Source of the DNA: a virus
Lineage: Duplodnaviria; Caudoviricetes
DNA: 27,156 nucleotides
Virus record (IMG/VR): IMGVR_UViG_3300049049_000183
Coordinates: 1 to 27,156 of that record
Strand: one strand, 5' to 3'
Shown here: positions 1 to 18,195 of the stretch, piece after piece
Position numbering within the stretch: the stretch's first letter is position 1
Layout of the letters: each line of letters begins with the position of its first letter
Position numbers and translations under genes: made by a program
The notes under the pieces: model-generated
Seen by the model: the letters and a program-made list of their open reading frames with translations, nothing else
The model's database searches: none
Told to the model about the DNA's origin: nothing

Positions 1-242
1 CGCAGCTGATGCGCCTGCTCGACACCTCCAGCCGTGCCGAGGGCGTGCGCATCTACATCGGCGGCGAGAGCCAGGTCGTGCCGTACGAGGAGCTGTCCAT
101 CGTGTCCGCGCCCTACGAGGTCGACGGCCAGGTGGTCGGCACGCTGGGCGTCATCGGCCCGACGCGCATGGCCTACGACCGCATGATCCAGATCGTCGAC
201 ATCACGTCGCGGATGGTCGGGCAGGCGCTTTCCCAGCGTTGA
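1..242 (+). CDS. hrcA: Heat-inducible transcription repressor HrcA, C-terminal part (5' end outside window)
   Basis: Translation contains IYIGGES...[27 protein letters not shown], the characteristic HrcA C-terminal GVIGPTRM motif; TGA at 240-242. Confidence 0.95.
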
Positions 243-275: not shown

Positions 276-314
276 GGGCCGTTAGCTCAGTTGGTCAGAG
301 CAGAGGACTCATAA
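276..314 (+). pseudogene. 5' half of host tRNA-Ile2 (anticodon CAT), truncated at the anticodon loop; prophage attachment junction
   Basis: GGGCCGT-TA-GCTC-AGTTGGTCA-GAGC-A-GAGGA-CTCATAA gives acceptor 5' strand, D arm, anticodon 5' stem and loop. The next bases (GGTCCC...) do not continue the cloverleaf and no T arm or CCA follows. C4/C5 favour Ile2 over Met. Confidence 0.9.
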
Positions 315-468: not shown

Positions 469-484
469 CTGTATGAAAATACAG
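469..484. promoter_or_regulatory. LexA (SOS) box
   Basis: CTGT-ATGAAAAT-ACAG, an exact CTGT-N8-ACAG match with AT-rich spacer in GC-rich DNA, 3 nt before ATG 488. Confidence 0.85.
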
Positions 485-487: not shown

Positions 488-859
488 ATGTTGGTCGACA
501 TCATCGAACTCAGGCACTGTGACCACGCCCGGGACCGCGATGCGGTGCGAGCGACGGTGCCTGTGCGGGTGACCATCGACATCGACAGGTTCTGGACGCA
601 CGAGAACCTGGACCGGCCCAAGGTCCACGCGAGCGTCCATCCGATGGTGCTCGAGCCGCTCTACGACGTGCGCATCCGATACTGGCGGCGCGTGAACATC
701 GTGTTGACCGGCCGCCAGCGGCAGGCCGTCCCTGGTCGCAAGAGCAGCGAGGCGATGTATGAGCAAACCTGGTGGTGCCGGCTCGTGTTGGACCCGACCG
801 TTCCACCCATGGCTCCCATCGCCAGGAAGCGTCTACCGGCGACCTACAATGCGTCTTGA
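488..859 (+). CDS. Hypothetical prophage protein (123 aa), probably SOS-inducible
   Basis: ORF with GC3-rich codons (MLVDIIELR...YEQTWWCRL); ATG 488 directly follows the LexA box (alternative ATG 473 lies inside the box). Confidence 0.7.
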   Translation: MLVDIIELRHCDHARDRDAVRATVPVRVTIDIDRFWTHENLDRPKVHASVHPMVLEPLYDVRIRYWRRVNIVLTGRQRQAVPGRKSSEAMYEQTWWCRLVLDPTVPPMAPIARKRLPATYNAS

Positions 860-861: not shown

Positions 862-1154
862 GGGCCGGACGCCGTGTTGGTTGCAGGCAGCGGACTCATA
901 GCAATAGTTGTGCACCCCGTCGGAAACGGCGGGTGTGAATGGCGTCAAATTCGGTGGAACCTGACGGCTGCGATGCAGCGCAAGGCAATGCCGAGCCAAG
1001 CCCCGCGAGGGGAAGGTGTAGAGACTAGACGGCGCCCGCCTAACGCTCGAAGAGAGCCATGGTGAAGGCATAGTCCAGGGAGGTCGGAAACGACCACAAA
1101 CCGGAATCCGTCAGCGAAAGCTCATCGTGGGTTCGAACCCCACCCGGCCTACCA
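862..1154 (+). tRNA. Prophage-borne intron-containing tRNA(CAU), probably Ile2; exons 862-899 and 1105-1154, 88 nt spliced, long variable arm
   Basis: Acceptor GGGCCGG/CCGGCCT, D stem GCC/GGC with GG in loop, anticodon stem GCGGA/TCCGT, loop CTCAT^AA, V arm AGC-GAAA-GCT, T arm GTGGG-TTCGAAC-CCCAC, A73 and encoded CCA. Possible -10 TACAAT at 845-850. Confidence 0.9.
900..1104 (+). ncRNA. Group I self-splicing intron, subgroup IC3 (Azoarcus tRNA-Ile type), 205 nt, no ORF
   Basis: IGS GTG pairing with exon CAT (G.U at splice site), P2 with GAAA loop, P3 GGCGTC/GGCGCC, P4 TTCGGT/GCCGAG, P6a CCCC-GCGA-GGGG, GTGTAGAGACTAGACGG, P7 GACTA/TAGTC in AAGGCATAGTCC, P9 GGTCG-GAAA-CGACC, ends CAAACCGG (omega-G 1104) then exon AATCCG. 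Confidence 0.96.
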
Positions 1155-1164: not shown

Positions 1165-2154
1165 CTACACCTTCTTGGTGTAGTGCTGGTCGAAGACCTG
1201 CAAGATGTTCGCATTGAAGTACGGCTTCTTCGGGCCGGCCGGGTTCTCCAGGTCCAGATAGCGAACCTTCGCGTAGCGCTCGTCGCCAAGCAATGGCTTC
1301 CGCACAGCGTGGAAGTCGTTGTTCATCTTGAAGTCGCTGTAGCGGTCGTTCAATCGCTTGCACAGCTCGTCGTAGGTCCAGGGATATCGTTCCTTGATGT
1401 CCTGTTCCCCAAGCGTCACTTTGATGGCATCGGCGTCCCTGGAGATTTGAACCTTCGACGCAGTGGCAAGGGCGCTTTTCTCCAGCTTGACCTGCAGGCG
1501 GATAGCCACGGCGTAGTCGCTGTCGCCATCGCCCACCTCTTGTGCGAGGTTCTTCAGGTGCTCGATGAGGCGAGATTCATCCGCGGAAACGACGACGGCG
1601 CCAGCCTCCTGCGCGGGGGCCACAAATGACAGCGGCAACACCAGGTTCAGGATGCCTGCGAAGTCCTTCGCGAACCAGCTCTTGGCCAGCAGGATGAAGT
1701 TTCTGACTGAAGCTGCCGCAAGCTCTTGGGTCTGTCGGGCCAGCGTCGCGCTTGCGGTGATGAAGTGAACGCTGTTGTCGCGGATTTCGACCAAAGCGTC
1801 GAGATTAGCCTTCACCTCCTTCGCCAGCTTGGTCGCGGGGGCCGCATCAAGCTTCGTGATGCAGGCACCCAATGTGATGGAGTGGGGGTTGCCGGCGCGG
1901 TTGCGCTTCAGGAACTTCCGCTCCGACTTGACACCGGCAGCAGTCAGGCGCGTCTCATACACCCGGAGGGCGGAGATGGCGTTGTTGGCATCTTTCAAAA
2001 CCTTGGCCTTGAGCAGCAATTCCCAAGCGTTCAGGGCCAAGATAGCGAAGGTCTCTTCCCTGTAGAGGAAGCTCGGCTTGTTGTAGACCTCCACCGCCGC
2101 GGTGAGCGCAGCTGCGGCTTTGTCCACGAACCTTTGATGCAGTGGCGGTCTCAT
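1165..2154 (-). CDS. DUF3644-domain protein (HEPN-like putative RNase), 329 aa, candidate defence/toxin
   Basis: N-terminal AVEVYNKPSFLYREETFAILALNAWELLLKA typical of DUF3644; RDNSVH is an Rx4H motif; ATG 2154 preceded by AGGGAGG. Confidence 0.82.
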   Translation of the reverse strand: MRPPLHQRFVDKAAAALTAAVEVYNKPSFLYREETFAILALNAWELLLKAKVLKDANNAISALRVYETRLTAAGVKSERKFLKRNRAGNPHSITLGACITKLDAAPATKLAKEVKANLDALVEIRDNSVHFITASATLARQTQELAAASVRNFILLAKSWFAKDFAGILNLVLPLSFVAPAQEAGAVVVSADESRLIEHLKNLAQEVGDGDSDYAVAIRLQVKLEKSALATASKVQISRDADAIKVTLGEQDIKERYPWTYDELCKRLNDRYSDFKMNNDFHAVRKPLLGDERYAKVRYLDLENPAGPKKPYFNANILQVFDQHYTKKV

Positions 2155-2494: not shown

Positions 2495-3415
2495 TCAGTA
2501 CCAAATTTCGACCATGCCAGGGCCGCCAGGGCCGCCGCCGTTGCCGTTGGAACCGCCACCGCCACCGCCGCCAGGTGCGTGGCCTGTCTCGCCGCCGGAA
2601 TAGGCGTTGCCCGTGCCACCAACGCCGCCCATAGGGCTGCTACTGCCGTTGGCGGGATAAAGGGTGCTGCTAAAAACCGCGCCCATGCGGGAAGCTTCGC
2701 CGGTGAGGTTGATGTCGCCGCCCGAGGCGCTGCCGCCGTTGTGTGAGCCACCGCCGCCAGCAGTCATGCCAGCGCCAAAGCCTGTCGGCGGGCTTACAGA
2801 GCTGTCGCCGCCAGGGCCGGGCGAAGCGCCTGCAGAATTGCCAAAGGTGCCGCCATGCCCGACGACAATCGTCCAGACTTGGCCAGGAGTCACGTCGCGA
2901 ATGAACTCTGCATAACCTCCGCCAGCGCCGCCGCGGCCGAACGTGGTCGGTGTAGTGCCGGGGTTGCCTTCGCCACCTTCGCCGCCGCCCCATGCGCGGA
3001 AGCGGGCACGCGTAACGCCAAAGGGGACCGTCCAATAGAAGGTGCCGGCAATGTCGTAGCGCTGAACAGTCGTGAAGCCGCCACCACCTGGGGGGCCAAC
3101 CAACGAGATACCGGCAGGCCACGCGTCAGCGGACTTGGGGCCGTAGAGCGCGGTCGCAGTGATGTCAATGTAGAAGTCACCGTTGGCCCCAAGCGAGTCA
3201 TCCGGCGCGCCAGAGCCGCTGTGCAGGGAGTTGCCAGAACCTCCCGCGCCAATGAGTTCGGCGAGGTAGTTCGTGCGGGCTACCAGTGCGACGGCTTGGG
3301 CGTTCATCGTCCCGTCCGCGCCTCCCCGGGCGATGCAAGGGACGCTCAGTTGCGGCACATCGACCCAGGCCGGTGCGGCGACGACAACGCCATCGAAATC
3401 AGCAGGTGTGGACAT
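2495..3415 (-). CDS. Glycine-rich tail fibre / receptor-binding protein
   Basis: Fibre-type N-terminus (WVDVPQL..GGADG..NAQAVALVARTNYL), GSGAP..G.NGDFYID..LYGPK motif, Gly-rich C-terminal domain (WTVPFGVT..AWGGGEGG..GGAGGGY..GMVEIWY). Confidence 0.8.
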   Translation of the reverse strand: MSTPADFDGVVVAAPAWVDVPQLSVPCIARGGADGTMNAQAVALVARTNYLAELIGAGGSGNSLHSGSGAPDDSLGANGDFYIDITATALYGPKSADAWPAGISLVGPPGGGGFTTVQRYDIAGTFYWTVPFGVTRARFRAWGGGEGGEGNPGTTPTTFGRGGAGGGYAEFIRDVTPGQVWTIVVGHGGTFGNSAGASPGPGGDSSVSPPTGFGAGMTAGGGGSHNGGSASGGDINLTGEASRMGAVFSSTLYPANGSSSPMGGVGGTGNAYSGGETGHAPGGGGGGGSNGNGGGPGGPGMVEIWY

Positions 3416-3439
3416 TGTTGTTGTTCTCCATGCAGGGCG

Positions 3440-3976
3440 TCATCGCTTGATGCCGTCCAAGATTTGGCTGCCATCGAGGCGCCAGGTGCCGTCAAGGCGC
3501 AGCGGTGACTGCTGCGGGACGTCGACCGGGGTCAAGTGCTCCCAGTGCCCAAGTCCCCGCACGCCAATCTGAACCGGTGAGCGGCCGAAGCCCGCGACAT
3601 GCACAGTGATTTGCGCGCACAGCTCGTCGCTGCGATGCCATTCGACGTGGATGTCCACCTTCGTGGCCACACCGTCGTCGATGAGCCACTGAAGGGCCTC
3701 GGCGATGAATGCCTCGGCGAGACCAAGGGTCGCGGTCGTGTGCTTCGCTCGCGTGAGCAGCCACAGGCGCGAGCCGATGGCGTTGTTGGAGCTGTCCGCC
3801 CACCAGCCGCGGCGGTCGGTCGTGCCGTCTGTGAGAACGTCGTCCGGCCCAGCCAGGCGGTCGGTGAACAGCGAGATGAGGACTGCAGTGACGATGTCAT
3901 CCCCAGACTCCAGGTCGGCTCCCGCGAGCGACCAGTCGCCGTAGGTGGTGTGCCAGAGAGTGGAGATATCCGGCAT
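3440..3976 (-). CDS. Mu gp46-like baseplate wedge protein with C-terminal LDGxWxLDG extension
   Basis: TAVLISLFTDR...RGWWAD...IGSRLWLL.RAK...AEALQWLIDDGVA signature of the GP46 family. Confidence 0.9.
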   Translation of the reverse strand: MPDISTLWHTTYGDWSLAGADLESGDDIVTAVLISLFTDRLAGPDDVLTDGTTDRRGWWADSSNNAIGSRLWLLTRAKHTTATLGLAEAFIAEALQWLIDDGVATKVDIHVEWHRSDELCAQITVHVAGFGRSPVQIGVRGLGHWEHLTPVDVPQQSPLRLDGTWRLDGSQILDGIKR

Positions 3977-3978
3977 CG

Positions 3979-4692
3979 TTACGTCCGGATGATGTAGTTC
4001 AGCGCGACGTTGCGCGGCCGGGTTTCGGTGCCGATGACGCCCGGCGGGTTGACCGTGCCGTCGACGTCGCTTCCGTCGTTCGTCCAGTAGAGGTAGTCGT
4101 CGTTGTCGGTGCCAGCGTCAGAGCCGAAGTGGCCGCGGCTGTCGGAATGGCCGAACGGCGCGCCAGCTGGGTATTCGCCGAACGGGCTCGCGTGCTTGTG
4201 GGTTTGCACCTGGCCAGCTTGCGACGAACCGAGCGCACGACCGGCATCGACGCCACGACCGGCATCCGCGCCACGGATGAACTCGCCGCGCAGGTCAGGG
4301 ACGTTGAAGGTCGTGCTGCCGTCGCCGGCGCCGAACGTCGTCCCGATGGCAGCGAACAGCGCCGGGTAGTCGTCACGGCTTACCGCGGAGCCATCGCACA
4401 GCAACCAGCCCGTCGAGGGACTCGAGGATGCCGTGGCAACCACACTGCCTGTTGGCACTTGGTAGCGCATCTCCAGCGCCTGCTGAAGCTGCGTGACGTC
4501 GGTCGCCGAAGGCGTGAGGCCCGCGGCCTCGATGACACCAACAATTTCCTGCATCAGCTGATACCACGCGTAGGCACCGGGCACGGTGGGGGCTACCGAG
4601 CCCAACACGCCGTTGGTCGGGTAGCCCGCAGAGCCAGGTGACGGCGGGGTGGGCGGAGTCGGCGAAGCGCCGGACTCAAAAAGCATCTTCAT
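3979..4692 (-). CDS. Tail fibre protein with tail-collar domain
   Basis: Mu-type fibre N-terminus (QEIVGVIEAAGLTP..TQL), collar motif GWLLCDG.AVSR..YPALFAAIGT.FG.GDGSTTFNVPDLRGEFIRG, C-terminal ETRPRNVALNYII. Confidence 0.9.
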   Translation of the reverse strand: MKMLFESGASPTPPTPPSPGSAGYPTNGVLGSVAPTVPGAYAWYQLMQEIVGVIEAAGLTPSATDVTQLQQALEMRYQVPTGSVVATASSSPSTGWLLCDGSAVSRDDYPALFAAIGTTFGAGDGSTTFNVPDLRGEFIRGADAGRGVDAGRALGSSQAGQVQTHKHASPFGEYPAGAPFGHSDSRGHFGSDAGTDNDDYLYWTNDGSDVDGTVNPPGVIGTETRPRNVALNYIIRT

Positions 4693-4705
4693 TGGCAGGG
4701 TCCAA

Positions 4706-5338
4706 TCAGGCGAACACAACGTTGGTGTGCGCAGGGGCGTAGCGGCTGATAACCGCTTGCAGGGCCGCGTTGCCGCTCGCTCCGGTCACCAGCCATGAAA
4801 ACGCCCACGCGTTGCCGCGTATAGGAACCGTGCAGTCGTCCGTGGTGAAGGTCGGACGGTATTGCGTGATGCCGATGGTCACGCCGAACGCGGCAGCGAC
4901 CCCGACGAAGTAGGCGATGCTGGCGCCGCCCACGGAGGACAGCGCGGCAATGACCTGTGCCTGTTGGCCAGCGAGCGTTGGAGCGAGCGCTGTGCCGTCC
5001 GCTGGCAGACCGAGGGTCGACTGCCACTCCGCGAGCAGGTATTGGGACGATGCGGGGAACGCGTCTTCGATGAGGTCGTTGGCGTTCGCACTGACCCGTT
5101 GAAAACTCGCCGCCAGAGCTCGAACCACGGCCGTCTGCGTGGAGTCTGGGTCGCGTGGCCATGCCCGCCCCACCGGCAGGAGGTTCTGCAGCGCGCCGGC
5201 GTAGTCGGCCACCGTGTATTTCGGCGCGTTGCCAGGCGGCGTTACCGCGGCCAGAGCTGCGGCGTAGTCGGCGAGCGAGCCGCCACCGGGGACCGGCGAC
5301 ATGCCCCCGGCTTGAATGGCTTCGATGAGCGCGCTCAT
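4706..5338 (-). CDS. Mu gp48/YmfQ-like baseplate protein (DUF2313)
   Basis: DYAGALQNLLPVGRAWPRDP...LLAEWQSTLGLP...PAHT motifs; directly after baseplate J. Confidence 0.88.
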   Translation of the reverse strand: MSALIEAIQAGGMSPVPGGGSLADYAAALAAVTPPGNAPKYTVADYAGALQNLLPVGRAWPRDPDSTQTAVVRALAASFQRVSANANDLIEDAFPASSQYLLAEWQSTLGLPADGTALAPTLAGQQAQVIAALSSVGGASIAYFVGVAAAFGVTIGITQYRPTFTTDDCTVPIRGNAWAFSWLVTGASGNAALQAVISRYAPAHTNVVFA

Positions 5339-6468
5339 GCCCAGGTCACCGTGCCCATGGTCGGCAGATGGCCGACGGGGACAACGATGCTCGCTGCGGG
5401 AGTGGTGAGAACGCCGGCGCTGGTGCCCGGCACGTTGGAAATCGCGCCCTCCAGCGACAACACGCTAATGGTGCAGCCCAGGGCCGAGCCTTGTTCAGCA
5501 ATCACGGCAGCCAAGTTCGCCTGCACAGCGGCCTTGACGGTCGGGGAAGCAGCGCTCAGGCCGGTGATGGTTAGGTTGATGGGCTGCGGAACCGCAGCGA
5601 CAACGTAGACCAGGGCCGTGACGGGCTGCAGCGGCATGATGTAGTCCGCGACTGCCAGCAGGTCGCCGGTAGCCTGAACGCCGCGGGTCTCGCTGGTCGC
5701 TACGCCGTTCGTGCCTTGCGGGAAGCCACCGTGTGCGGCTTCCGCATGGTCGAACATCGGGTATACGACGACGCTTCCCGGGCCGTAGCCGTTCGGAGCG
5801 ACCCACACGCGCGTGACGCCTGGAACTTCGAGCGTCCACTGTTGATAGTCCGCGAGGCTGCCACCGTGACCAGGGTTGCGATACGCCCGCAGCATGCGGT
5901 CGCGAAGAGATTCATCAGTCTCCAGGTCGGCACCGCCGGTGAGCGCGTCAAACACCGTCACCGAGGACGGAACACCCGCGAACGGAACGCCAAAGGAGAG
6001 GATGGAGCCTGCAGGCGTGTTTTGAATCGCACCCACAAGGCCAGACGGGTCAGGAACACCCTTGACCGGAATCGTGAACGGTGAGGACGTGGACGTGGTG
6101 ATGGCCGCAGTCGTAACGAACTTCTGGCCGTCGCCGCGAACCAGCGTCGTGCCTTCTGGGATGACGACGCCTGGACCCGTCCCCATGTGCCCTTGAACGG
6201 AGCCGGTGGCGCTAGCCGCGGGCAGGCGATACACGCCCTTTACTGCTGCCCAGGACTCCAGGAACTCGCCCGTCGATGTGACCGGGGTCGACTGCTGCCC
6301 CACCCAGTCGATGTAGCCATAGAGCAGGTAGGTCAAGCCGGCGAGCGCCGTGCCCAGGATGCCCAGGTTGGAGAACCGGAGCAGCGGGTCTGAGCCAGGC
6401 AGCGCCGCGGCGATGTCTTGCGCGGCTTGCGTCTGTAGCTGTGAGATGGTTGGACGGGGAAACGGCAT
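5335..6468 (-). CDS. Baseplate J / Mu gp47-like protein
   Basis: MPFPRPT start, GGADLETDESLRDR..GG...DY..W..EVPGVTRVWV motif. Confidence 0.93.
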   Translation of the reverse strand: MPFPRPTISQLQTQAAQDIAAALPGSDPLLRFSNLGILGTALAGLTYLLYGYIDWVGQQSTPVTSTGEFLESWAAVKGVYRLPAASATGSVQGHMGTGPGVVIPEGTTLVRGDGQKFVTTAAITTSTSSPFTIPVKGVPDPSGLVGAIQNTPAGSILSFGVPFAGVPSSVTVFDALTGGADLETDESLRDRMLRAYRNPGHGGSLADYQQWTLEVPGVTRVWVAPNGYGPGSVVVYPMFDHAEAAHGGFPQGTNGVATSETRGVQATGDLLAVADYIMPLQPVTALVYVVAAVPQPINLTITGLSAASPTVKAAVQANLAAVIAEQGSALGCTISVLSLEGAISNVPGTSAGVLTTPAASIVVPVGHLPTMGTVTWA

Positions 6469-6479
6469 CGTTGTCTTTC

Positions 6480-7076
6480 TTATGCGATGGGCTGGCCAGT
6501 GGGATTGCCCGAGCTGGCGCTGGTGTGACGATGCGTCTTCAACGACAGGGCACCCAGCTTGACGTCAGGCGCGGAAATCACACCGGCCGAGGTCACGGGA
6601 CCGCCGAGGGTCACCGCGTCCGCACTGGTCTGCTCGATGACGCCATCAACGTGTAGGCCTTGGTTGGCGTGCAGCGGCGCATTGACGTCCACACGTGTAG
6701 CGTTCTGCAGGGTGATGGTGCGTGAGCCGCCGGCGTCAAGCACGATGCCCGAGGCAGAGAGGTGGATGTACTGGCCGCGGTTGTCGTAGATGGCAACGTC
6801 GCCGTTATCCAGCGCCTTCATGCGGAACTGCTGGTTGTTCGTTGCAACGATGATTCCGTTCGAGCGCTCGCCAGCGAGGAACACCACGATGGCGTCCGTG
6901 CCCACGGGAGGCACTGACGTGAACCCGTACTCGGCCGCCCGCGGAACGTCTCCAATGAGCTCATCGGCGCCCATGCGGACCTGCATGGTTTGCACAACGC
7001 CTGCGTCGTTGGTGTCCGTTGAGCGGCCACGGCCCACGACTTGCTGGATACGCCGCCAGAGGTGCTGCATCGACAT
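6480..7076 (-). CDS. Baseplate spike, Mu gp45-like
   Basis: EYGFTSVPP..AIVVFLAGERS..GDVAIYD motif; C-terminal HxH (THRH) metal-binding tip. Confidence 0.92.
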   Translation of the reverse strand: MSMQHLWRRIQQVVGRGRSTDTNDAGVVQTMQVRMGADELIGDVPRAAEYGFTSVPPVGTDAIVVFLAGERSNGIIVATNNQQFRMKALDNGDVAIYDNRGQYIHLSASGIVLDAGGSRTITLQNATRVDVNAPLHANQGLHVDGVIEQTSADAVTLGGPVTSAGVISAPDVKLGALSLKTHRHTSASSGNPTGQPIA

Positions 7077-7079
7077 CGG

Positions 7080-8210
7080 TCAGCCCCCCGGCTTCGGGGC
7101 AACCCCCGACAGCTCTTTGATGGGGTTGAGCTTGTTCAAGTCGTAGGGCTCTGGCTCGTAGGCGCCACTCAGCATCAGCGTCAGCTCGCACGAAGTGCCG
7201 GCTTCGTTGCGGTGATACGTGACCTCGCCGATGGTCAAGTTCGCGCTCTTGACCTGCAGCGTCGGCAGCTCGACCAACGCCTGGGTGTTCGGGCGATACA
7301 GCACGCCAGCGGAATCACGCCATGAGTCGGTGATGAGCTGCACGACGTTCGAGCGGCCGATGCGTCGGTTCTTCTCCCACGCCGCTCGCTGGCCAGCGAT
7401 GGCGAGGCTGGAGACACCGTTGATTTCGACGATAAAAATCTTGCGGCGATGCCGTGGCACCGTCGGGTCCTGCACTGCGGCGATGAGGTCGGAGCCAATG
7501 CCGGCGTCCTTGAACATCTCGACGCTTTGCATGTAGGACTCGTATTCGCTGTAGCGCTGGTCCAGCATTGCCGAATAGGTGGCGCGCTGGACGTTGATGC
7601 CTTCCCGGAACCCGGAGGCGGCTTGTTCCTCTTGCAGCGCTGAGAGCATCAGACTGCCATCGGGCATGTCATACGCGAGCAGCTGTGCTGCGCGACAGAG
7701 CCGCTCGATGATTTCAAACGGGGTCTCGCCGCGGTTCAGGTTGAACTGGGGAATGGCCGGGCCGTCGTTGCCATCGTGCGAGGCCACGGTGATGCCGTAG
7801 GGCGCCGCCAGCTTCTGGGCAATCTCAAGGACGGAGGAGCCGACGATTTGGCCACCAGGCCACTCGGCTGAGCAGTCCACCAGGTCGGCGCACTTGCTGC
7901 GGCCCACGATGGTGACGCTGTGCGACCGCGCGTCGTAGGTGCGCGTGACGCGGTCCACATAGCCGGTCAGCACAAGGTCCCGCCCAATCTTCACCTTGAC
8001 CGTGGCGCCGCGCAGAATCTTGATGGCGTCCTGGCCGGGGATGAACTCCGTCAGGCGCACTTCAAAATCGGAGGGGCACCGCTCGACGCCGCGCGTGATG
8101 CGCACGTCGGTCCAGCCAGTCCACGCGAGACCGTCGATTTCCAAAGTCACGTCGTCGTCAGGCAGAGACCTCTGCTCAACAATTTCGGTGGAAGTGGCGT
8201 CGACGGTCAT
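7080..8210 (-). CDS. Baseplate hub, Mu gp44 (gpP)-like
   Basis: GWTDVRITRGVE..F, TGYVD, GRSKCADLVDCSA, GETPFEIIERLCR motifs. Confidence 0.92.
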   Translation of the reverse strand: MTVDATSTEIVEQRSLPDDDVTLEIDGLAWTGWTDVRITRGVERCPSDFEVRLTEFIPGQDAIKILRGATVKVKIGRDLVLTGYVDRVTRTYDARSHSVTIVGRSKCADLVDCSAEWPGGQIVGSSVLEIAQKLAAPYGITVASHDGNDGPAIPQFNLNRGETPFEIIERLCRAAQLLAYDMPDGSLMLSALQEEQAASGFREGINVQRATYSAMLDQRYSEYESYMQSVEMFKDAGIGSDLIAAVQDPTVPRHRRKIFIVEINGVSSLAIAGQRAAWEKNRRIGRSNVVQLITDSWRDSAGVLYRPNTQALVELPTLQVKSANLTIGEVTYHRNEAGTSCELTLMLSGAYEPEPYDLNKLNPIKELSGVAPKPGG

Positions 8211-8214
8211 CAGG

Positions 8215-9525
8215 TCAGGAGCTCAAGGCGGAGAAGGTGGTTGGCATGAACGCTGGGTTCGGGCAGTCAGCACGCCGGACCAATTCGGGCTCGCGCCCGA
8301 TGTCTTGATACAGCCGCTGCGCCAAGACCAGCGAAGGGACAGAGCTAGGTGTAGCTACCGTCACCAGGGATGGCAGCCTCGCGCCTTTGGCGTTCATGTC
8401 GCGGATGACCTCGGCCCGCGCAGCTCGGAGCGCAGCGTAGACAGCGTCGTTGCCCTGCTCACCCGCCACCTTGATTTCGGAGTCGACGTAGCTCAAGACC
8501 TCATCGCGCACCGCAGTGGCTTCCAGTGCCGTGCTGGGCTGGTAGTCGCCCGAAGCGGTGCAGAGCTGGGTGACGGCGAGCCGGCGCAGGTAGTCGGCCG
8601 TAGAGGCGGAGGTGAGCGAGGTCGCAGCCGCCAACTTGGTCATGGCGATGGCTGTGGCAATCGCAGACGCTGGCGAGAAGCTGGCTGCCTTGACCGCGGC
8701 CACATGCCCCGTGACGGCCAGTGTGAAGAGCGCTGACGTTGTCGCCGTCAGGTTGGCAGCTGCGGAGGACACTGCCCGAGCCGACACGTCAACGGAGAGG
8801 CGAGCTGCAGCTGCGGCTCCGTAGAGCGCCGACACAGGCTTGGAGACAGTCTGGATGGCACCGATGACGATGCCGGTGGCCTGCCCGACCATCCGGCCGA
8901 AGTTGCCGGAGGCCTGCGTAGCAATGCTGACCAGGTTCGTGGCGCTTGCCACGGCGGATTTGCTGCGCGAGAGCCAGTCCGTTGACACCGCGGCCACCGT
9001 GGGCTGAACGGGAGCATTGGCGGCGAACTGAGCGTTGATTTCGTCGAGCCATTGTTGCGTTGACTTGGACTGCACCTCTGCGGCAGCAGCGTTGATGGCG
9101 TCGGCGCTAGCCACCGCAGTGCCCGGAAATTGGCGAGCCGCGGTGTCTTCGACAAACGTGGCCTCGAACTCGAACACCCGGCCGCGTTCCCAGTGCTCGT
9201 TGGTAGAGAAATCCAGCAGCTTGACAGTGAGGCGGCCGAAAGTGGGATGCACAAGCTCGCCGGGGCCTGGCTTCTCGCAGGCCGCAATGAGGGCATCCCG
9301 CTGGGCGATGGCGTCGTCGCCGACGACAAACCCAGAGATGGAGTAGCGCCGCAGGCCGCGGCCCAAGTCCTCCACCCATGCGGTGTCTTTGAAGGGGTAC
9401 TCATGGACGGCGGTCCGGCGACCGAACTTCGCGCTTCCGCCGAACGTCTTGAAGGGCACGCCACGCCAGGAGGCCGGCTGCAGCTGAGCGAAGAACGAGC
9501 TGGGGTTCTGTGTAGTAGTCATCAC
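8215..9525 (-). CDS. Mu gp43 (N)-like DNA circularisation / tail protein
   Basis: ASWRGVPF..GRRTAVHEYPF.D..WVEDLGR..GPGELVHPTFG; C-terminal PSLVLAQRLYQD..R..EL. Confidence 0.92.
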   Translation of the reverse strand: MMTTTQNPSSFFAQLQPASWRGVPFKTFGGSAKFGRRTAVHEYPFKDTAWVEDLGRGLRRYSISGFVVGDDAIAQRDALIAACEKPGPGELVHPTFGRLTVKLLDFSTNEHWERGRVFEFEATFVEDTAARQFPGTAVASADAINAAAAEVQSKSTQQWLDEINAQFAANAPVQPTVAAVSTDWLSRSKSAVASATNLVSIATQASGNFGRMVGQATGIVIGAIQTVSKPVSALYGAAAAARLSVDVSARAVSSAAANLTATTSALFTLAVTGHVAAVKAASFSPASAIATAIAMTKLAAATSLTSASTADYLRRLAVTQLCTASGDYQPSTALEATAVRDEVLSYVDSEIKVAGEQGNDAVYAALRAARAEVIRDMNAKGARLPSLVTVATPSSVPSLVLAQRLYQDIGREPELVRRADCPNPAFMPTTFSALSS

Positions 9526-11102
9526 GAGTCGATGTCAGCCATGGAACGGGTGACCTTCACGGAAGCAGGCTGGCCACCTGAAGAAGCGTTCGAGACGACC
9601 ATGCCCCGCGGCGCGTTCTCGAACTTGACGTGTAGGGTGTGGTTGAGCGCTGTCTGTCCCGCCTGAGCGGTATCGCCGCCTTGTCCGGGAGGGTTGGACG
9701 GTGGGGCGATGGGCGGAAGCGCGAGCTGTTTGTTGGCCGCGGCAAGGTAGTCCTCGACGGAGTCACCTTTGGCGGGTGGCTTCGGCGGCGCGAACTTGGC
9801 GATGTTGTCGCTGACGGTCGCGAGCCCGTCCCGGTCTGTCGGGAGCGCGGGCCGGGGAAGGGCACCCGACAGCAGGCCCGGCGGCACGGGAATGGCCGGC
9901 GGCAGGCGGCCCATCACCACCGACGTATGCGGCGGTGGGATAAATGGAGCGGCAGCGCCCGCGGTAGGCGATGCGAGCTGGACCCGCGCCGCCTTGGCAC
10001 CCGCAGGTGCAGCGCCTGTCGCCGCACCTGTTGTAGACGGCGCAGCGGGCACTGCCGTCTTGCTCTTGGAGCCCGCTGCTTTCAGGGCAAGAAGCCCCGG
10101 CAGAAGCGCGGTGCCTCCTGGCATCACGGCAGACAGCGCAAACAGAGACGAAGTCGGCATGTTGGCCGTCTTACGCTCCAGCGTATCCAAGAAGCTGCTA
10201 GAGCTGTCCGCGTTGGCCAAGTCGTCGATGCCCCGGATGATTTTCTCTAGAACCGGGTAAACCTTCGAGCCGATGGTGTTGCCCAGGCCGTCCGCGGAGG
10301 CCTTCAGCTTGTTGAGCGCCTTGGCGTAGGCCTCGGCGTTCTTGATAGCCTGGGGGCTCAGCACAGCGCCCAGCTTGTCGGCCTGCTTCGCGTTCTCCTC
10401 GAGCGCATCGGCTCCCTTCATCATCTGAGGAAGGACCTTCACGTAGCCGACCATGTTGGCGGCAATCTCTTTAGCTTGTGGCGTGAGGTCGGTGCGCGCG
10501 GAGTAGTCGGCAAGCTTCTTGAGGGCGTATTCGACGTCCCAAGCGCCGTCCTTCGTGCGGCGGAGCTCGATTCCCGCTGCGTTGAAGAACTGCAGCAGCG
10601 GGCCGCCTTCGTAGTAGGCGTTGCGCATCGAGCGGCCAATGTTGGCCATCGCCTCCTGCATGTCGTCGCCTGAGCCACCCATGAGCTTCACGGCGCCCGC
10701 GTAGCGCTGCAGGGCATCGGTGGAGATGCCTGTGACGGTAGAGAGCTGAGAAACCCTGAAGCCTGCGTTCGCGACTTTGGACCCCAGGACTGTCAGACCT
10801 GCGCCGATGGCGGCGATGCCAGCGACTACGCCCCCCGCTGCGCCGGCCGCTCCAATACCGAGCAGCCCCTCCATCGACGCCGAGCTGATTCCGATGTTTT
10901 TCGCTAGCTTTGCTGCGGAGTTTGCTGCGGTGCCGAAGCCCTTCGCCAGCGCCGGGAGGTGCATCTCCTTGCCCAGGGCACCGAGGGACCGGCCCATGCG
11001 CTGCACGGGCCGAACCGCCTTGCCAAACCGCTCGTTTATGCGATTGACGACCGCAGTGGCTTTGTCGACCGCGGTGACGGTGATTTGAAAGGTGTTGGAC
11101 AC
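9522..11102 (-). CDS. Tape-measure-like protein (526 aa)
   Basis: ITVTAVDKAT N-terminus, Ala/Gly-rich helical body, position between tail chaperone and gp43; GTG start. Confidence 0.8.
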   Translation of the reverse strand: MSNTFQITVTAVDKATAVVNRINERFGKAVRPVQRMGRSLGALGKEMHLPALAKGFGTAANSAAKLAKNIGISSASMEGLLGIGAAGAAGGVVAGIAAIGAGLTVLGSKVANAGFRVSQLSTVTGISTDALQRYAGAVKLMGGSGDDMQEAMANIGRSMRNAYYEGGPLLQFFNAAGIELRRTKDGAWDVEYALKKLADYSARTDLTPQAKEIAANMVGYVKVLPQMMKGADALEENAKQADKLGAVLSPQAIKNAEAYAKALNKLKASADGLGNTIGSKVYPVLEKIIRGIDDLANADSSSSFLDTLERKTANMPTSSLFALSAVMPGGTALLPGLLALKAAGSKSKTAVPAAPSTTGAATGAAPAGAKAARVQLASPTAGAAAPFIPPPHTSVVMGRLPPAIPVPPGLLSGALPRPALPTDRDGLATVSDNIAKFAPPKPPAKGDSVEDYLAAANKQLALPPIAPPSNPPGQGGDTAQAGQTALNHTLHVKFENAPRGMVVSNASSGGQPASVKVTRSMADIDS

Positions 11103-11128
11103 GGTGACCGCCTGTTCTTGTTGTTAGC

Positions 11129-11308
11129 TCATGCGCCAGCTTGTTGGGTGCTGGCGATGCGCTTTGATTGGTCGTACCACCACAGCAGCTTGGGCAATGT
11201 CAGCTGCTCCGCGTCTTTTGGCCCCCAGCGATAGAAATAGGTGACGTCGGCGATTACGTCGAGGATGTGGACGCCTTCTCGGGGAGTTTGTTGAATCCGT
11301 CCAAAAAA
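11129..11308 (-). CDS. -1 frameshift extension of the tail assembly chaperone (P2 gpE'-like)
   Basis: Slippery T TTT TTG (11308-11302) opens a 59-codon -1 frame ..IADVTYFYRWGPKDAEQLTLPKLLWWYDQSKR..; TGA at 11131-11129. Confidence 0.8.
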   Translation of the reverse strand, partial: FFGRIQQTPREGVHILDVIADVTYFYRWGPKDAEQLTLPKLLWWYDQSKRIASTQQAGA

Positions 11309-11526
11309 TCAGCGCACCTCGCCAAGTCACGTTGCGTCATCTTGTTCAGGACCTGTGGAGGGACCTTGCCCACGAGCTCGATGAGCTTGAGGACGCTGCG
11401 GAGCCCAGTGAAATCGGCTGCGGCGAGTAGATGCTCGACCAGCGGCTGAGTTAGCGTGAGCGACTCGTACACGGCGGTGCCCACGGTGATGGGCTTCTCG
11501 AAGGTCAGGTGGAGGGTGTCGTCCAT
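11254..11526 (-). CDS. Tail assembly chaperone (Mu gp41/P2 gpE-like)
   Basis: 90 aa between tube and tape measure; L..PI...Y..LTL..P and M..RD....DF pattern. Confidence 0.82.
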   Translation of the reverse strand: MDDTLHLTFEKPITVGTAVYESLTLTQPLVEHLLAAADFTGLRSVLKLIELVGKVPPQVLNKMTQRDLARCADFLDGFNKLPEKASTSST

Positions 11527-11529
11527 TGC

Positions 11530-11898
11530 TTAGGCCTCCTCGACCAGCGGACCCTGGAACTCCACGTCGAACGTGCCTTCCTGAGTCTTCACTTCTTGGG
11601 CGCTGACGGTCCACATTCCGCCGCCGGTGATGTTCTTGCCGTTGGCCAGCTGAGCAATCACGGAGACGTTTGTCATGGCATTGATGCTCGCAACGGAGAG
11701 GTTCGACGCATCGCGCAACTGCCCTTTGATGAAGCCGGCGACCGGCTTCTCGGAGTAGCCGTGAACGGAGTCCTGTCCAACGAGCGTCTCGCGCTCGACG
11801 GTGGCAACGCGGTACTCGAGGTCGCCCGCGAGCATGTACTGGACGCCGTCGACGCTGATGTATGCGACGCCGGCAAGGCGTGGGGATGCGATGGCCAT
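11530..11898 (-). CDS. Tail tube protein (Mu gpM-like)
   Basis: RLAGVAYISVDG..RETLVGQD.VHGYSEKP..LANGK motif; AAGGAG RBS. Confidence 0.92.
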   Translation of the reverse strand: MAIASPRLAGVAYISVDGVQYMLAGDLEYRVATVERETLVGQDSVHGYSEKPVAGFIKGQLRDASNLSVASINAMTNVSVIAQLANGKNITGGGMWTVSAQEVKTQEGTFDVEFQGPLVEEA

Positions 11899-11918
11899 AG
11901 GCGGCTCCTTGTGAGATG

Positions 11919-11942
11919 AAAAAAGCCGCCCTCAGGCGGCTT
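11919..11942 (-). terminator. Terminator-like hairpin between sheath and tube genes
   Basis: Minus strand GCCGCC-TGAG-GGCGGC followed by TTTTTT. Confidence 0.7.
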
Positions 11943-11966
11943 GGGGTAACTTGTGTAGCTACCGAC

Positions 11967-13448
11967 TCACTGGAGGCGAAATTGGGCCAGCACAGCGAAG
12001 ATGCGCAGCTGGGCAACCAAGGTAGGCGGATACAGCACGTCGACCCGGTTCGGGTTGGTCTTGTTCTGCTCGACCACCAGTTCTTGCTTGAACTGTTCGA
12101 TGTTCTGCAGATAGCCCTGCGCTTCGAGCGCGCGTGCTTGGTTAATGATGGCCGCGCGGATGATGGCCGGCGTCACGATGGCCGCGCCGGCGGCGAACCG
12201 GGTGCCGTCGGCGGCCAGCTTGACGCGTGCGAACTTCGAGGTCACTACGGAGCGCAGGTTGCGTAGCACGTAGGCCAGCGTGTAGAGCGTCTCGACTTGC
12301 AGGTAGCTGTTGTCAGCGTCGCCGAACGCGTTGGTCTGGTAGGTCGTGATGGCGTTCTCGATGCTCACGGTGCCATCGGCGGCCACGTCGAACGTGGAGA
12401 TGCCGGTGTAGAGCAGCGTGTTGCGGTCAGTCAGCGCAAACCGGCTGGCCAGGGGAGGCGGCAGGATGCCTGGCAGCACGACGGTCTGCAGCGGCAGCGC
12501 GGGGTCGACCTTCAGGCTGGCCGCAGCTGCTCCGCAGTAGACCGCGGCGCGCAGGTGTGCGGGCGTCGGGCAGTTTTTGAAGCCGATGATGGACTCGTAG
12601 GGGTTGTTTCGCGCCGCACCGAGGGTCGTCAGCGCGCCGAGCGTGCCATCAGCCGAGGCGAACACACCGCCGTAGAGCTGCTCGCTCCAGGACCAACGAC
12701 CCGTCGAGGCGTTCAGCAGCGTCTTGAGCGCGTCCAGCGACGTCGTGTCGGTATACGGGGAGCAGATGAAGTCGAACGTGTGCGAGCCCAGGTTCGCCAG
12801 AGCAGCGGTCAGGTCCGGAGCGCCGGCACCGCCATGAGGCTGGGTGATGCTGAACGTCAGGCCAGCTGGGGTCGCTTCGCCACCCAGGGTGCCACGGTAG
12901 TTCGTCTGGAGGATGTAGCCGTTGCCGCATGGTCCCTTGTTGGCGGCGGTCAGCGTTACTTCGGCGCTGTCGGCTACCGCAGTGAACGGGCAACTCGTGT
13001 CGGAGTTGATGAGCGCGGCCAGGGCGGTCGCAATCTGGGCGGGCGTCTGCGTCGTCAGCACCGGAAGCTGGTAGCGAACGTCGCCGATGTAGAGGCTCAG
13101 GACGCCGTTCGCGGTGGCAGCTGCCGTGAACTCAATGGAGCCAACTGCGGCGACGGAGCCGGCGGCGTCAGCCAGAGGGAGATACCAGACTTCGCCCAGC
13201 GAGTCAGCCAGGCGATATTTCGCCAGCATCGCCGCGAGCATCGACCGCGGTCCGCCAACAGCTTGTGCGTCGCCCAGGCCCTGAGAGATGACGGGGACGT
13301 TGGCAACGCCGGTGCCGTCAGCGGTCATCTGACCAATGATGAGAGACCGTTGGGTGGCAGTCGCCGAGTTGGCGTGCGAGTTGTCAACTTCCGCGTAAAA
13401 GAGCGGAACGCGGATGTTCGACGGAAGGTTTTTGAAGGGGATGGTCAC
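11967..13448 (-). CDS. Tail sheath protein (Mu gpL-like)
   Basis: IPF..LPSNIRVPLFYAEVDNS N-terminus; TTYQTNAFGDADNSYL; NPNRVDVLYPP.L..QLRIFA C-terminus. Confidence 0.96.
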   Translation of the reverse strand: MTIPFKNLPSNIRVPLFYAEVDNSHANSATATQRSLIIGQMTADGTGVANVPVISQGLGDAQAVGGPRSMLAAMLAKYRLADSLGEVWYLPLADAAGSVAAVGSIEFTAAATANGVLSLYIGDVRYQLPVLTTQTPAQIATALAALINSDTSCPFTAVADSAEVTLTAANKGPCGNGYILQTNYRGTLGGEATPAGLTFSITQPHGGAGAPDLTAALANLGSHTFDFICSPYTDTTSLDALKTLLNASTGRWSWSEQLYGGVFASADGTLGALTTLGAARNNPYESIIGFKNCPTPAHLRAAVYCGAAAASLKVDPALPLQTVVLPGILPPPLASRFALTDRNTLLYTGISTFDVAADGTVSIENAITTYQTNAFGDADNSYLQVETLYTLAYVLRNLRSVVTSKFARVKLAADGTRFAAGAAIVTPAIIRAAIINQARALEAQGYLQNIEQFKQELVVEQNKTNPNRVDVLYPPTLVAQLRIFAVLAQFRLQ

Positions 13449-13678
13449 GAGCGGCGCTCCTGCTGAATGTTGTTGGAATTGGCCTTACGCGGCGGATTGG
13501 CCGGAGCGGCACTCGGGTCGACGCCAACGCTAACGTCCGCGTCAGCAATGCGCCGAGCCCAGTAGTGACTGAGCTCGACCAAGCGGCCCTCCGCGGGCAG
13601 ATATCGAGCCGGCGTTCGGACTACCGCCGGGTCGACGATTTGCATGCCCGGCTTGGGAACGACGTAGACGTGTGACAT
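13445..13678 (-). CDS. DUF2635 / Mu gp38-like small tail protein
   Basis: VVPKPG..I.DP....LP.EG..V....YW.RR..D.DV motif; overlaps the sheath start. Confidence 0.85.
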   Translation of the reverse strand: MSHVYVVPKPGMQIVDPAVVRTPARYLPAEGRLVELSHYWARRIADADVSVGVDPSAAPANPPRKANSNNIQQERRS

Positions 13679-13742
13679 TGCGTGGCGCGGCATTCGGTTT
13701 GTGTGGCTCGTATAGGCACCTGCCACGCGCACCTGCGCCAGC

Positions 13743-13856
13743 TCAGGCTTCCATGCCTGCCGCGAAGGCCTCGGCGGCTTCACGAGTGGCGAAAGTCCGG
13801 AAGACCACGCCACCGATGACGACTGCGTAGCGGCCGAAGTAGGGTTTGATTTCCAT
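13743..13856 (-). CDS. Small hypothetical protein, 37 aa (MEIKPYFGRYAVVIGGVVFRTFATREAAEAFAAGMEA)
   Basis: ATG 2 nt after the upstream TGA, GC3-rich codons; below the ORF-track cutoff. Confidence 0.6.
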   Translation of the reverse strand: MEIKPYFGRYAVVIGGVVFRTFATREAAEAFAAGMEA

Positions 13857-13858
13857 CG

Positions 13859-15244
13859 TCAGTCCTTCACTGCTTTGCGCTCAAAGCCGGCTTTCAATGC
13901 GGTGTAGTCGCAGTTCAGAGCCCTGTTTGGTGTGCCGTTGAAATACATCAACACGTAGTTGTCAGCGCCGTAGCCGAGGCCGTTGACCACGCCGCCAAAG
14001 CTGTCATGCGGATGGCGTGCGGAGGTCTGGCGCACGAAGACATCGACCACGCCGCCTGTGGGCGTGCTGTGGCGAATCTCGAAGAATCCCAGCTTGGTGT
14101 ATGCGAGGAAGGCGGTTGGCTGGTCTTCGCCCACCAGTGGGCGCACGACCGCGGACTTCTCTGGGGCGCCGACGACCATGCTCACGGCTTGCGCGCACAT
14201 GACGTCGTTCTCGGCGTCGTAATACACGCCCACGCGTGAGCGCATGGCACTGTCGCTGTCCATGACGCAGATGAAAGCCTTCTCAGCGGGGTGATACGCC
14301 AGCACACGACGCACCGAGCTTCGGTTGGCGTTCAGTGCGGCTTGGCTGACCGAGGTGTCGCCGTTGGTCACGCGCAGGTTCAGCGTCTCGCCAAGGTCCC
14401 AAAGCAGCCACTTCGCGAAGGTCAGGCTGCCCAGTCGCATCGCGCATACCTGCGCACCCTCGCCGGCGGTTGAGTCCGCGACGAAGGAACACTGCGTCTC
14501 GCTGCCCCAGTCATCAAAGAGGAAAGCGAATTCGGCCACCAGGTCGAGTTCGCCTTGCGTGTTGATGACGAACTGACCCATATCGCCATCAGGCAACATG
14601 CGCAGCACTACCAGCTTGGTCTGGCCGTCCGCTGTCTTGACCGCCTTCAGCACCAGATACAGGCAGCTCGGCTCGCCAGGCACGAACAGGGCGCTGACGA
14701 CAGCGGCGCTGCTGTATTCGGCGGAGAGGTCGTAGCCGAAGGAGAAGGACGAGATGTCGCCCAAGTTCGGGTCGTAGATGGGCTCGCCCACGCTGTGTGC
14801 GTAGCCCACCAGCGCGTTGCCGTCCCCAATCTGGTCAATAACGGTCAGCCCGGCATCGACGGCCCTCGCGCTCTCGGCAACTGCGTCGTAGTAGGCGCAG
14901 CCCTGTTCGGTGGCGTTCGTCACCTGCGTGTCCAGGAACGTGAAGCCAGCCGGTGCGGGGTGGTTGCCCTGGAGCTTGATGACGGCGCCGGATGGCAGGC
15001 CGGTGGCGGGCGAAGAAAGCTCGCCGATGGCATCAAGCACCGGCTGCAGGTCTGCGCTTGGGATGGCGGCGATAGCTGACATCAGCGTCGCCAGGTTTGC
15101 AGAGGACATGCCCGCGACGGCGTCGATGACCGCCTGCTTGTCTGCGTCTACAAGCGCGTCGATTGCCGCTTGGGCGGCCGCAACGGATTCCGTGGTTGCA
15201 AGGCCGGACAGGTTCGGGTTGATGTAGGTTGAGAGCAGGGACAT
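13859..15244 (-). CDS. Hypothetical 461-aa acidic protein, possible virion appendage
   Basis: Start overlaps upstream stop (TGATG); helical Ala-rich N-terminus, then beta-rich body; inside the structural operon. Confidence 0.75.
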   Translation of the reverse strand: MSLLSTYINPNLSGLATTESVAAAQAAIDALVDADKQAVIDAVAGMSSANLATLMSAIAAIPSADLQPVLDAIGELSSPATGLPSGAVIKLQGNHPAPAGFTFLDTQVTNATEQGCAYYDAVAESARAVDAGLTVIDQIGDGNALVGYAHSVGEPIYDPNLGDISSFSFGYDLSAEYSSAAVVSALFVPGEPSCLYLVLKAVKTADGQTKLVVLRMLPDGDMGQFVINTQGELDLVAEFAFLFDDWGSETQCSFVADSTAGEGAQVCAMRLGSLTFAKWLLWDLGETLNLRVTNGDTSVSQAALNANRSSVRRVLAYHPAEKAFICVMDSDSAMRSRVGVYYDAENDVMCAQAVSMVVGAPEKSAVVRPLVGEDQPTAFLAYTKLGFFEIRHSTPTGGVVDVFVRQTSARHPHDSFGGVVNGLGYGADNYVLMYFNGTPNRALNCDYTALKAGFERKAVKD

Positions 15245-16173: not shown

Positions 16174-16523
16174 GAGATTCGATTCAGTTCGATACGGGCA
16201 TGCCCGTGGCCGTCGGGCTTGCCGGCTTTGACCGTGTAGCGAACGCCTGTGCTTACGCGGACGAGTTCGTCCTTTTGGGCCGCCTCTGGCTTAAACCCTG
16301 CGGGGAATTCCGACAGCCGAACGCCGCAGACCGGCCGGACCGAAATCACACCGGGGTCGCCGTTGCCGTCGAGTGCCACGTTGGTGTAGGCGGTGTCGAA
16401 CACGCCAGTGATATCGAACGGGGACCCGCTGCGCGGGTAGTACGTGATGCGCTCGCCAAAGACCGCGTTGAGCGGTGCAAGAACGAGGGCGTCCCAGTCA
16501 ATGGCCATTTCGTTGCGCTCCAT
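16170..16523 (-). CDS. Head-tail joining (head closure) protein
   Basis: IDWD..VL.P...VFGE..Y.P..G..F.ITGVFD..PDGHG..L motif; start 16523 or 16508. Confidence 0.8.
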   Translation of the reverse strand: MERNEMAIDWDALVLAPLNAVFGERITYYPRSGSPFDITGVFDTAYTNVALDGNGDPGVISVRPVCGVRLSEFPAGFKPEAAQKDELVRVSTGVRYTVKAGKPDGHGHARIELNRIS

Positions 16524-16577
16524 AGGGGAGCGACGGAATGCCGCTCTTGCAACGTATAGGCAAGGGTCGCTAGGGGC

Positions 16578-16606
16578 TTGCCGCGCGAAACCCCGCCCTG
16601 TAGATT
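16578..16606 (+). promoter_or_regulatory. sigma70-like promoter of the moron
   Basis: TTGCCG (16578-16583), 17 bp, TAGATT (16601-16606); GGGAGG RBS at 16620-16625. Confidence 0.6.
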
Positions 16607-16631
16607 ACAAAAGCTAACAGGGAGGCTTAGG

Positions 16632-18189: not shown

Positions 18190-18195
18190 TTGGGA

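Follow-up and report, generated by a model that had tools for sequence, protein, structure and literature searches.

A long-arm tRNA(CAU) with an A8/U14 core, split by a group I intron and lying behind a truncated host tRNA-Ile2 gene in a prophage, belongs to a conserved family of probable AUA-reading isoleucine tRNAs

Introduction

Positions U8 and A14 are near-invariant in tRNAs, and reviews list the bacterial tRNAs whose variable arm is long as those for Leu, Ser and Tyr, plus the Sec type. The gene for bacterial tRNA-Ile2(CAU) is called ileX, and the group I introns that follow U36 of tRNA-Ile(CAU) are of the Azoarcus type. Introns of tRNA genes, these included, were catalogued by Williams 2020 (10.1101/2020.01.27.920355). 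The acceptor-stem elements for TilS are C4:G69 and C5:G68 in E. coli, and the B. cenocepacia enzyme needs G3:C70 together with a D-loop element (PMC12514573). The elements for E. coli IleRS are U12:G23 and C29:G41 (PMC13433404). Long variable arms on tRNAs with anticodons other than those for Leu, Ser or Tyr have been described as nev-tRNAs (PMC4033280) and allo-tRNAs (PMC5389517), minor species that are mischarged with Leu or Ser, or inactive; the allo-tRNAs have 8/4 or 9/3 branches (PMC5389517).

tRNA-dependent lysogeny was defined by Guerrero-Bustamante and Hatfull 2024 (PMC10865867), who describe cases with actinobacterial hosts and tRNA-Lys, and call the spread of the strategy outside actinobacteriophages open. 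For Burkholderiaceae, the supplement of a tRNAscan-SE 2.0 study (PMC8450103) labels 88-nt genes on chromosome 2 of B. phymatum STM815 (66.4 bits) and B. xenovorans LB400 (62.1) as Ile2-CAT, and the study mentions intron-containing Ile2 genes in Acidovorax and Burkholderia; its accessible parts do not discuss the shape of the 88-nt genes. The main text of PMC1635315 mentions neither Ralstonia nor Burkholderia, nor a variable or extra arm. No description of a bacterial Ile2 with a long arm or with A8/U14 was found in the literature searched, most subscription papers lying outside its reach.

Results

Anatomy of the tRNA gene

The window, i.e. the whole stretch of DNA analyzed, is a virus record of 27,156 bases containing a prophage with a lambda-like head and a Mu-like tail according to PHROG and Pfam (Table 1). 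Joining the two exons gave an 88-nt cloverleaf called tRNA(CAU) by ARAGORN, whereas 0 of 300 dinucleotide shuffles of the spliced sequence were called a tRNA; its minimum free energy was unremarkable alone (-35.2 versus a shuffle mean of -29.6, sd 3.5). Neither ARAGORN with its intron option off nor Rfam at the gathering score detected the unspliced gene.

Table 1. Features of the window, in order of position.
Feature	Position	Strand	Basis
hrcA, 3' end, in the host DNA beside the prophage	3..242	+	Pfam PF01628, E 4e-19; intact Ile2 after hrcA in 4/5 closest relatives
Ordinary host tRNA-Ile2(CAU), 5' half up to and including the 7-nt anticodon loop (308-314), likely the attL core	276..314	+	sequence
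LexA-box-like palindrome just before ORF 488-859	469..484	+	CTGT-N8-ACAG match
123-aa ORF, stop 2 nt before the tRNA	488..859	+	no Pfam, PHROG, NCBIfam or PADLOC match
Long-arm tRNA(CAU), 5' exon (positions 1-36; A8, C9, G13, U14, C21, A22)	862..899	+	sequence, ARAGORN, family alignment
Group I intron, 205 nt, between U36 and A37, no ORF	900..1104	+	Rfam RF00028, conserved helices
Long-arm tRNA(CAU), 3' exon (positions 37-76; 15-nt variable arm, A73, CCA)	1105..1154	+	sequence, ARAGORN, family alignment
DUF3644 gene of the PADLOC candidate defence family PDC-S19, oriented toward the tRNA 3' end	1165..2154	-	PF12358, E 1e-47; PDLC04954, E 9e-136
Prophage structural genes (Mu-like contractile tail, lambda-like head, portal, terminase)	2495..27043	-	PHROG, Pfam

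Read from the sequence, the acceptor stem carries G1(862).U72(1150), G3:C70, C4:G69 and C5:G68. A8 is at 869, followed by C9, and U14 at 875, with G15 at 876, G18G19 at 879-880 and C21 at 884; the D stem has 3 bp (871-873/886-888), next to G13(874).A22(885). The anticodon occupies 897-899. The variable region (15 nt, 1112-1126) holds a 3-bp hairpin closed by GAAA (1113-1122) and ends on C48 (1126), and the T loop (1132-1138) precedes A73 (1151) and CCA (1152-1154). A sequence-only reading of this DNA, made earlier by a model, had listed the 15-nt arm, A8/U14, G13.A22, G1.U72, G15-C48, G18G19, TTCGA, A73 and CCA, and had pointed to C4:G69, C5:G68, CAU and A73 as E. coli TilS/IleRS determinants; every one of these was found in the sequence. 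The D arm of the minimum-free-energy fold (U14-A22, G15-C21) was ruled out because members of the family with A15 break it, while 13:21 covaries.

The long variable arm with a stem and the 3-bp D stem with G13.A22 are features of class II tRNAs. The anticodons and identities of Leu, Ser, Tyr and Sec tRNAs are absent, the anticodon being CAU and the ATA columns of homologues (see below) being Ile. The tRNA resembles nev-tRNAs and allo-tRNAs in combining a long variable arm with an anticodon that is not for Leu, Ser or Tyr, but lacks the 8/4 or 9/3 branch and the G73 or U73 of allo-tRNAs: it is 7/5, with A73 and a 3-bp arm, and its family is the sole candidate for reading AUA in whole genera.

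A conserved family with a covarying core

Altogether, 59 distinct A8/U14 long-arm sequences were collected from phages and Burkholderiaceae, all with their stems kept. Positions 15:48 are complementary in all 59 (33 GC, 26 AU), as are 13:21 (56 GC and 3 CG, the latter of which may stem from one event), and A22 is fixed. In all 54 arms of 15 nt, the three pairs of the variable arm are Watson-Crick, and two of these positions show four pair types. The reciprocal 8/14 swap had been taken from the sequence as a sign of selection rather than decay, a view borne out by this conserved family, in which the variable-arm pairs covary and the stems persist throughout. Of 88 positions, the window exons share 76-79 with four homologues and 58 with the host-type gene.

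The D-arm pattern was matched by 39 viral contigs and at least 120 genome stretches among those listed (about 190 estimated); the 120 comprise 117 Burkholderiaceae, two uncultured beta proteobacteria and one Acidobacteriaceae MAG. The patterns behind these genome and viral counts fixed A8, G13, U14 and C21 by design, and therefore only a viral scan with a free D arm is unbiased at these positions. That scan, which accepted any long-arm CAU tRNA, returned at least 120 loci (about 260 estimated), from which 72 distinct tRNAs were parsed; 18 of the 72 are A8/U14, with 13:21 as GC in 15 and CG in three. Among the long-arm tRNAs with C4:G69 (n = 21), 12 are A8/U14, eight U8/A14 and one A8/A14. Long arms on phage CAU tRNAs, initiator-like ones included, are therefore not rare. 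Many phage CAU tRNAs at loci L120-L239, initiator-like and of other types, have variable arms of 13-22 nt, and seven U8/A14 long-arm Ile2-like loci may form the sister group of the A8/U14 family. A one-mismatch D-arm search of 401 genomes of the order gave matches at control level and was uninformative. Genomes G181, G443 and G356 contribute solely to this search and to the tally of hrcA relatives.

Viral members vary more than chromosomal ones in the acceptor and anticodon stems, which would fit a phage origin of the family. The Acidobacteriaceae MAG, the sole non-betaproteobacterial genome match, has its tRNA 85 nt from a contig end, with the sequence of one from Paraburkholderia, and is possibly mis-binned. 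Orphan long-arm 3' halves beginning at the anticodon loop were seen at two loci (L144 and L156) and in five genomes (G459, G472, G497, G503 and G524): integration into the long-arm gene itself is common.

Genomic position, copy number and history

The long-arm gene lies 132-257 nt after rpoD in 70 of 80 genome loci with long flanks, and the short-arm Ile2 genes of relatives do likewise in 31 of 31 checked; in Paraburkholderia, Trinickia and Ralstonia it occupies the slot of their relatives' ordinary tRNA-Ile2. Seven Cupriavidus copies among the 80 loci lie away from rpoD, and one Cupriavidus genome (G005) has the long-arm type plus an intact ordinary Ile2. Long-arm copies were noted at nine Cupriavidus loci, some genomes having them in two or three places.

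Within 121 genomes of the genus Paraburkholderia, 103 have the long-arm gene only, two have both types, 13 the short-arm type only and three neither, counts that are not phylogenetically independent. The long-arm gene is present in 105 of these genomes, one of them unpublished (G511) and not a basis for any claim, and 103 of the 105 show no other Ile2. A pattern for the 3' part of short-arm Ile2 matched 16 of the 121: the 13 genomes without a long-arm gene, whose short-arm Ile2 has a different intron, after U33; the two with both types, where the extra short-arm Ile2 sits in a Gly-Ser-Ile cluster; and one orphan 3' half of an elongator Met tRNA. A pattern for introns after U36 matched 0 of 121. 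An earlier Ile2 pattern demanding CC at 61-62 misses one ordinary Ile2 type, and so was not used to establish absence and was replaced by two other patterns.

The genomes G001 and G004 have initiator tRNAs and a separate elongator Met tRNA. Calling tRNAs in 30 loci gave none with UAU (for another 24 matches the text alone was judged), and no tRNA-like match to UAU occurred among the 150 matches listed out of 562. TilS scored above cut-off in 5/5 carriers and 5/5 host-like genomes. The homologue genomes, with separate fMet and Met genes, no other Ile2 and TilS present, have the place of the AUA decoder filled by the long-arm gene. ThiI was not found above cut-off in five of five carrier or host-like genomes; loss of s4U8, proposed from the sequence as a benefit of A8, is for this reason probably moot, and escape from s4U8 was rejected as a motive. 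Where ThiI is absent, U8 may be under weaker selection.

On a 101-row rpoD tree, the four tRNA body types need six changes (minimum three) and the long-arm label alone needs four, so the tRNA body at the rpoD locus has been replaced repeatedly. One clade of this tree (12 Burkholderiaceae genomes, L437-L448) has a short-arm Ile2 after rpoD in which A8 stands with A14 and 13:22 is a T:A pair, a second departure from U8 at this locus. Burkholderiaceae without the long-arm gene, noted at 22 loci, often have a short-arm Ile2 split after U33; these introns are group I, 248-304 nt long, and at one locus (L664) the intron is preceded by C.

A prophage behind a truncated host Ile2 gene

The palindrome at 469-484 resembles a LexA box. 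The host tRNA half upstream of it is near-identical to the 5' half of three intact genes (L614, L615 and L617), and no 3' half of the host tRNA-Ile2 is present within the window. Among the five genomes with the closest hrcA, four have an intact Ile2 after hrcA that is their sole match to the intron-less Ile2 pattern, and the fifth has no match. The long-arm tRNA starts 548 nt past the truncation point (314), and the longest word that it shares with the host half is 10 nt in the spliced and 9 nt in the unspliced gene. The sequence-only reading had mentioned neither that whole genera have this tRNA as a chromosomal gene nor that the copy here sits behind a truncated host Ile2.

Public DNA runs include a contig (147-314) that stops at 314, at depths of 79 (X3), 93 (X14) and 22 (X15), and further contigs that continue past 314 into an ordinary Ile2 3' half; the loose ends may belong to other organisms, and depth does not give the fraction of cells. 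Two contigs, 285-621 (X3) and 288-588 (X9), enter the phage at a depth of about 5, with short sides of 30 and 27 letters against a tool bar of 31. The layout at 314 would fit an attachment junction at which the host gene was not rebuilt. The record covers this one junction, the far junction and the integrase lying beyond it.

Judged on this arrangement, the truncated host Ile2 and the nearby phage tRNA are likely a case of tRNA-dependent lysogeny. As in the described systems (PMC10865867), truncation of the host tRNA falls at a short core, with no rebuilding at the one visible junction, and the phage tRNA nearby has the same anticodon and, by the family evidence, the isotype Ile2. The differences are a betaproteobacterial host and Ile2, instead of actinobacterial hosts and tRNA-Lys, and a replacement tRNA whose body is class II-like and which a group I intron interrupts, the likeness here being drawn from one junction. 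No other prophage with a long-arm tRNA behind a truncated ileX was present among the fetched loci, and the prophage closest by terminase (L649, record G657) has no CAU tRNA in five loci checked.

Alternatively, the gene could be a working tRNA-Ile2 but an accessory copy here, of use in lytic growth or in outlasting a tRNA nuclease of host or prophage, and unneeded for lysogeny. Most viral homologues do belong to tRNA arrays on large phage contigs, away from any att site, the Cupriavidus copies are extras away from rpoD, and the tRNA is adjoined by the candidate defence gene PDC-S19 and preceded by the LexA-like box. We regard this as unlikely, because the host gene, of which relatives have a single copy, breaks off 548 nt upstream precisely at the anticodon loop, because the 20 window genes (19 of the prophage and the hrcA end) use ATA in 2 of 6176 codons, and because DUF3644 is not linked to the tRNA elsewhere, being absent from every fetched locus, those of homologous tRNAs included. 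The same codon count ruled out compensation for the codon usage of phage genes.

The promoter scan found a sole site, that of the host tRNA (230-259), and no terminator. A TACAAT hexamer lies directly upstream of the long-arm tRNA. No relative was found for ORF 488-859. A 404-aa ORF (16904-18118, + strand) opposite to the structural genes has no match in Pfam, PHROG, NCBIfam or PADLOC.

Evidence for Ile2 identity

The meaning of ATA was examined in alignments of dnaG, rpoD and rpsU from carrier loci (68, 62 and 21 genes); yqeY had no ATA. Taking the consensus of the other rows, the 17 ATA-bearing columns were Ile in nine cases, Thr in four, Met in two, Val in two and Leu in none, the Thr and Val columns falling in a poorly aligned N-terminal region of rpoD. 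All six invariant columns were Ile, one of them with 13 ATA, and in the same alignments CTA fell in Leu columns in 45 of 55 cases. These columns argue for Ile and against recoding, and are compatible with low-level mischarging.

G3:C70, C4:G69 and C5:G68, all present in the window tRNA, are kept in 49, 49 and 53 of 59 members, respectively. The D-loop sequence needed by B. cenocepacia TilS differs in the window tRNA, and the E. coli IleRS elements are replaced by C12:G23 and G29:C41; ordinary Burkholderiaceae Ile2 genes also vary at 29:41, and the IleRS stem elements were therefore not treated as defining. Compared with bacterial tRNA-Ile2(CAU) of the ileX type (PMC12514573, PMC9976931), the tRNA is alike in CAU, A73 and the three acceptor pairs just named, and also in genomic position, copy number, the presence of TilS and the alignment of AUA with Ile. 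It is unlike in its length (88 nt versus 76-79), its variable arm of 15 nt, A8/U14 where ileX-type genes have U8/A14, G13.A22 alongside C21 (13:21 covarying), and in sharing just the 58 positions with the host-type gene. The 88-nt Ile2 genes of STM815 and LB400 are likely members of the long-arm family.

The sequence-only reading had weighed an Ile2 on a new scaffold against a tRNA charged by a V-arm-reading synthetase that mistranslates. The position after rpoD, the status of sole Ile2 candidate in 103 of 105 carriers and the occurrence of ATA in Ile columns support the former, and the latter runs against the 0 of 17 ATA-bearing columns with a Leu consensus. Mischarging would make the tRNA, through its long arm and A73, a substrate of LeuRS (or of TyrRS or SerRS), with AUA or AUG wholly or partly mistranslated as for nematode nev-tRNAs and allo-tRNAs. 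It has in its favor that E. coli LeuRS reads A73 and the tertiary core and not the anticodon (PMC9976931), that A15:U48 occurs in 26 of 59 members, and that nev-tRNA-Gly inserts Leu in vitro (PMC4033280). We nevertheless consider it highly improbable: besides the lack of Leu columns, the unanimity of the invariant Ile columns and the regular use of CTA for Leu, 103 genomes have no candidate AUA decoder other than the long-arm tRNA, the window copy has G15:C48 and U20a and not A15:U48 and A20a, and there is neither G73 for SerRS nor a GUA anticodon for TyrRS. An extra elongator tRNA-Met with C34 left unmodified, as the encoded CAU and the ARAGORN label Met might imply, is scarcely credible, since carriers own separate elongator Met and initiator tRNAs and would be without an AUA reader, and since the gene has the position of an Ile2 locus and G3:C70, C4:G69 and C5:G68.

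The group I intron

The intron scored 43.9 bits against Rfam RF00028 (E 1.2e-9), just below the gathering score of 50. U36 forms the U.G pair of the 5' splice site with G910, the terminal intron base is G1104, and P1, P3, P4, P7, P8 and P9 are all paired. Core helices, U.G pair, terminal G and position after U36 together identify a group I intron in a tRNA-Ile(CAU). Insertion site, U.G pair, terminal G and a length of about 205 nt are as in the Azoarcus-type introns; the exons differ, forming a long-arm body in the window, whereas every other intron found here is in a short-arm tRNA. Compared with the introns of three phage tRNA(CAU) genes (L521, L560 and L573), the differences are compensatory, with the same helices paired and the core conserved. 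A contig of soil run X14 provides a second copy across 856-1159 with 16 differences (13 displayed), six of which fall in three P9 pairs that retain pairing.

An intron-anchored pattern scan of a first set of loci gave chance matches and no intron, and two metagenome matches to the pattern were both due to chance. The scan of 119 loci yielded four introns of the same type, all within short-arm tRNAs. Four phage contigs (L521, L560, L573 and L579) have short-arm tRNA(CAU) genes with this intron type after U36, and L560 additionally holds an intron-bearing tRNA-Leu. None of the 159 pattern-matched homologues (39 viral, 120 genome) carries the intron, and a blastn search of GenBank phages returned T-arm or intron fragments only.

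The spliced joint was not seen in the contigs of four RNA runs (X19-X22), which are short unspliced pieces (597-840, 871-1043, 927-1112 and 1150-1320) and as contigs are uninformative on transcription or splicing; a 314-1012 joint among them has a short side and is likely another organism's. The window copy of an otherwise functional family might be inactive, its intron unspliced or the gene silent, as the sub-threshold Rfam score, the unseen spliced form and the lack of the intron in the 159 homologues would allow, but this is very improbable given that all tested helices pair, that the diverged X14 copy has paired changes in P9, and that the exons agree so closely with those of homologues.

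Discussion

The feature is real and conserved, and its most probable identity is an isoleucine tRNA that reads AUA and has an unusual architecture. The explanation that we hold with good confidence is that the conserved long-arm A8/U14 tRNA(CAU), split by an intron, is likely self-spliced, likely given lysidine by TilS and Ile by IleRS for reading AUA, and here likely a replacement for the truncated host Ile2. Integration of the phage would fall at the 7-nt anticodon loop of the host's one ileX and leave that gene unrestored, and the phage tRNA would be transcribed in the lysogen and its intron spliced out. TilS would then convert C34 to lysidine by way of G3:C70, C4:G69 and C5:G68, and IleRS would charge the tRNA, whose altered core (A8.U14, possibly G13-C21 with A22 unpaired) is expected still to fold into the L shape. 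The divergent body, and the intron interrupting the shared loop, may spare the phage copy from serving as an integration target.

More tentatively, and with somewhat more doubt than belief on our part, a phage-borne class II-like Ile2 with a rewired core (A8.U14, G13-C21) may enter genomes by tRNA-dependent lysogeny and become the sole AUA decoder after decay of the prophage. The state of Paraburkholderia, Trinickia and Ralstonia would have arisen in this way, with the window as the first step. Under such a tRNA swap, the six or more body changes after rpoD on the tree would mean that phages repeatedly exchange an essential host tRNA.

The intron and the replacement strategy are known already, and the gene has likely been annotated automatically. 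The class II-like A8/U14 body as the sole Ile2 of a whole genus was not found described in the literature searched. A natural, apparently essential Ile2 that breaks both the long-arm and the U8/A14 rules in genera widely used in laboratories would imply that a class II-like core is acceptable to TilS, IleRS, EF-Tu and the ribosome, and would raise the question of how LeuRS rejects such a tRNA. The window would extend the layout of tRNA-dependent lysogeny to a betaproteobacterial Ile2 gene, and suggests a possible route by which phage tRNAs replace those of their hosts.
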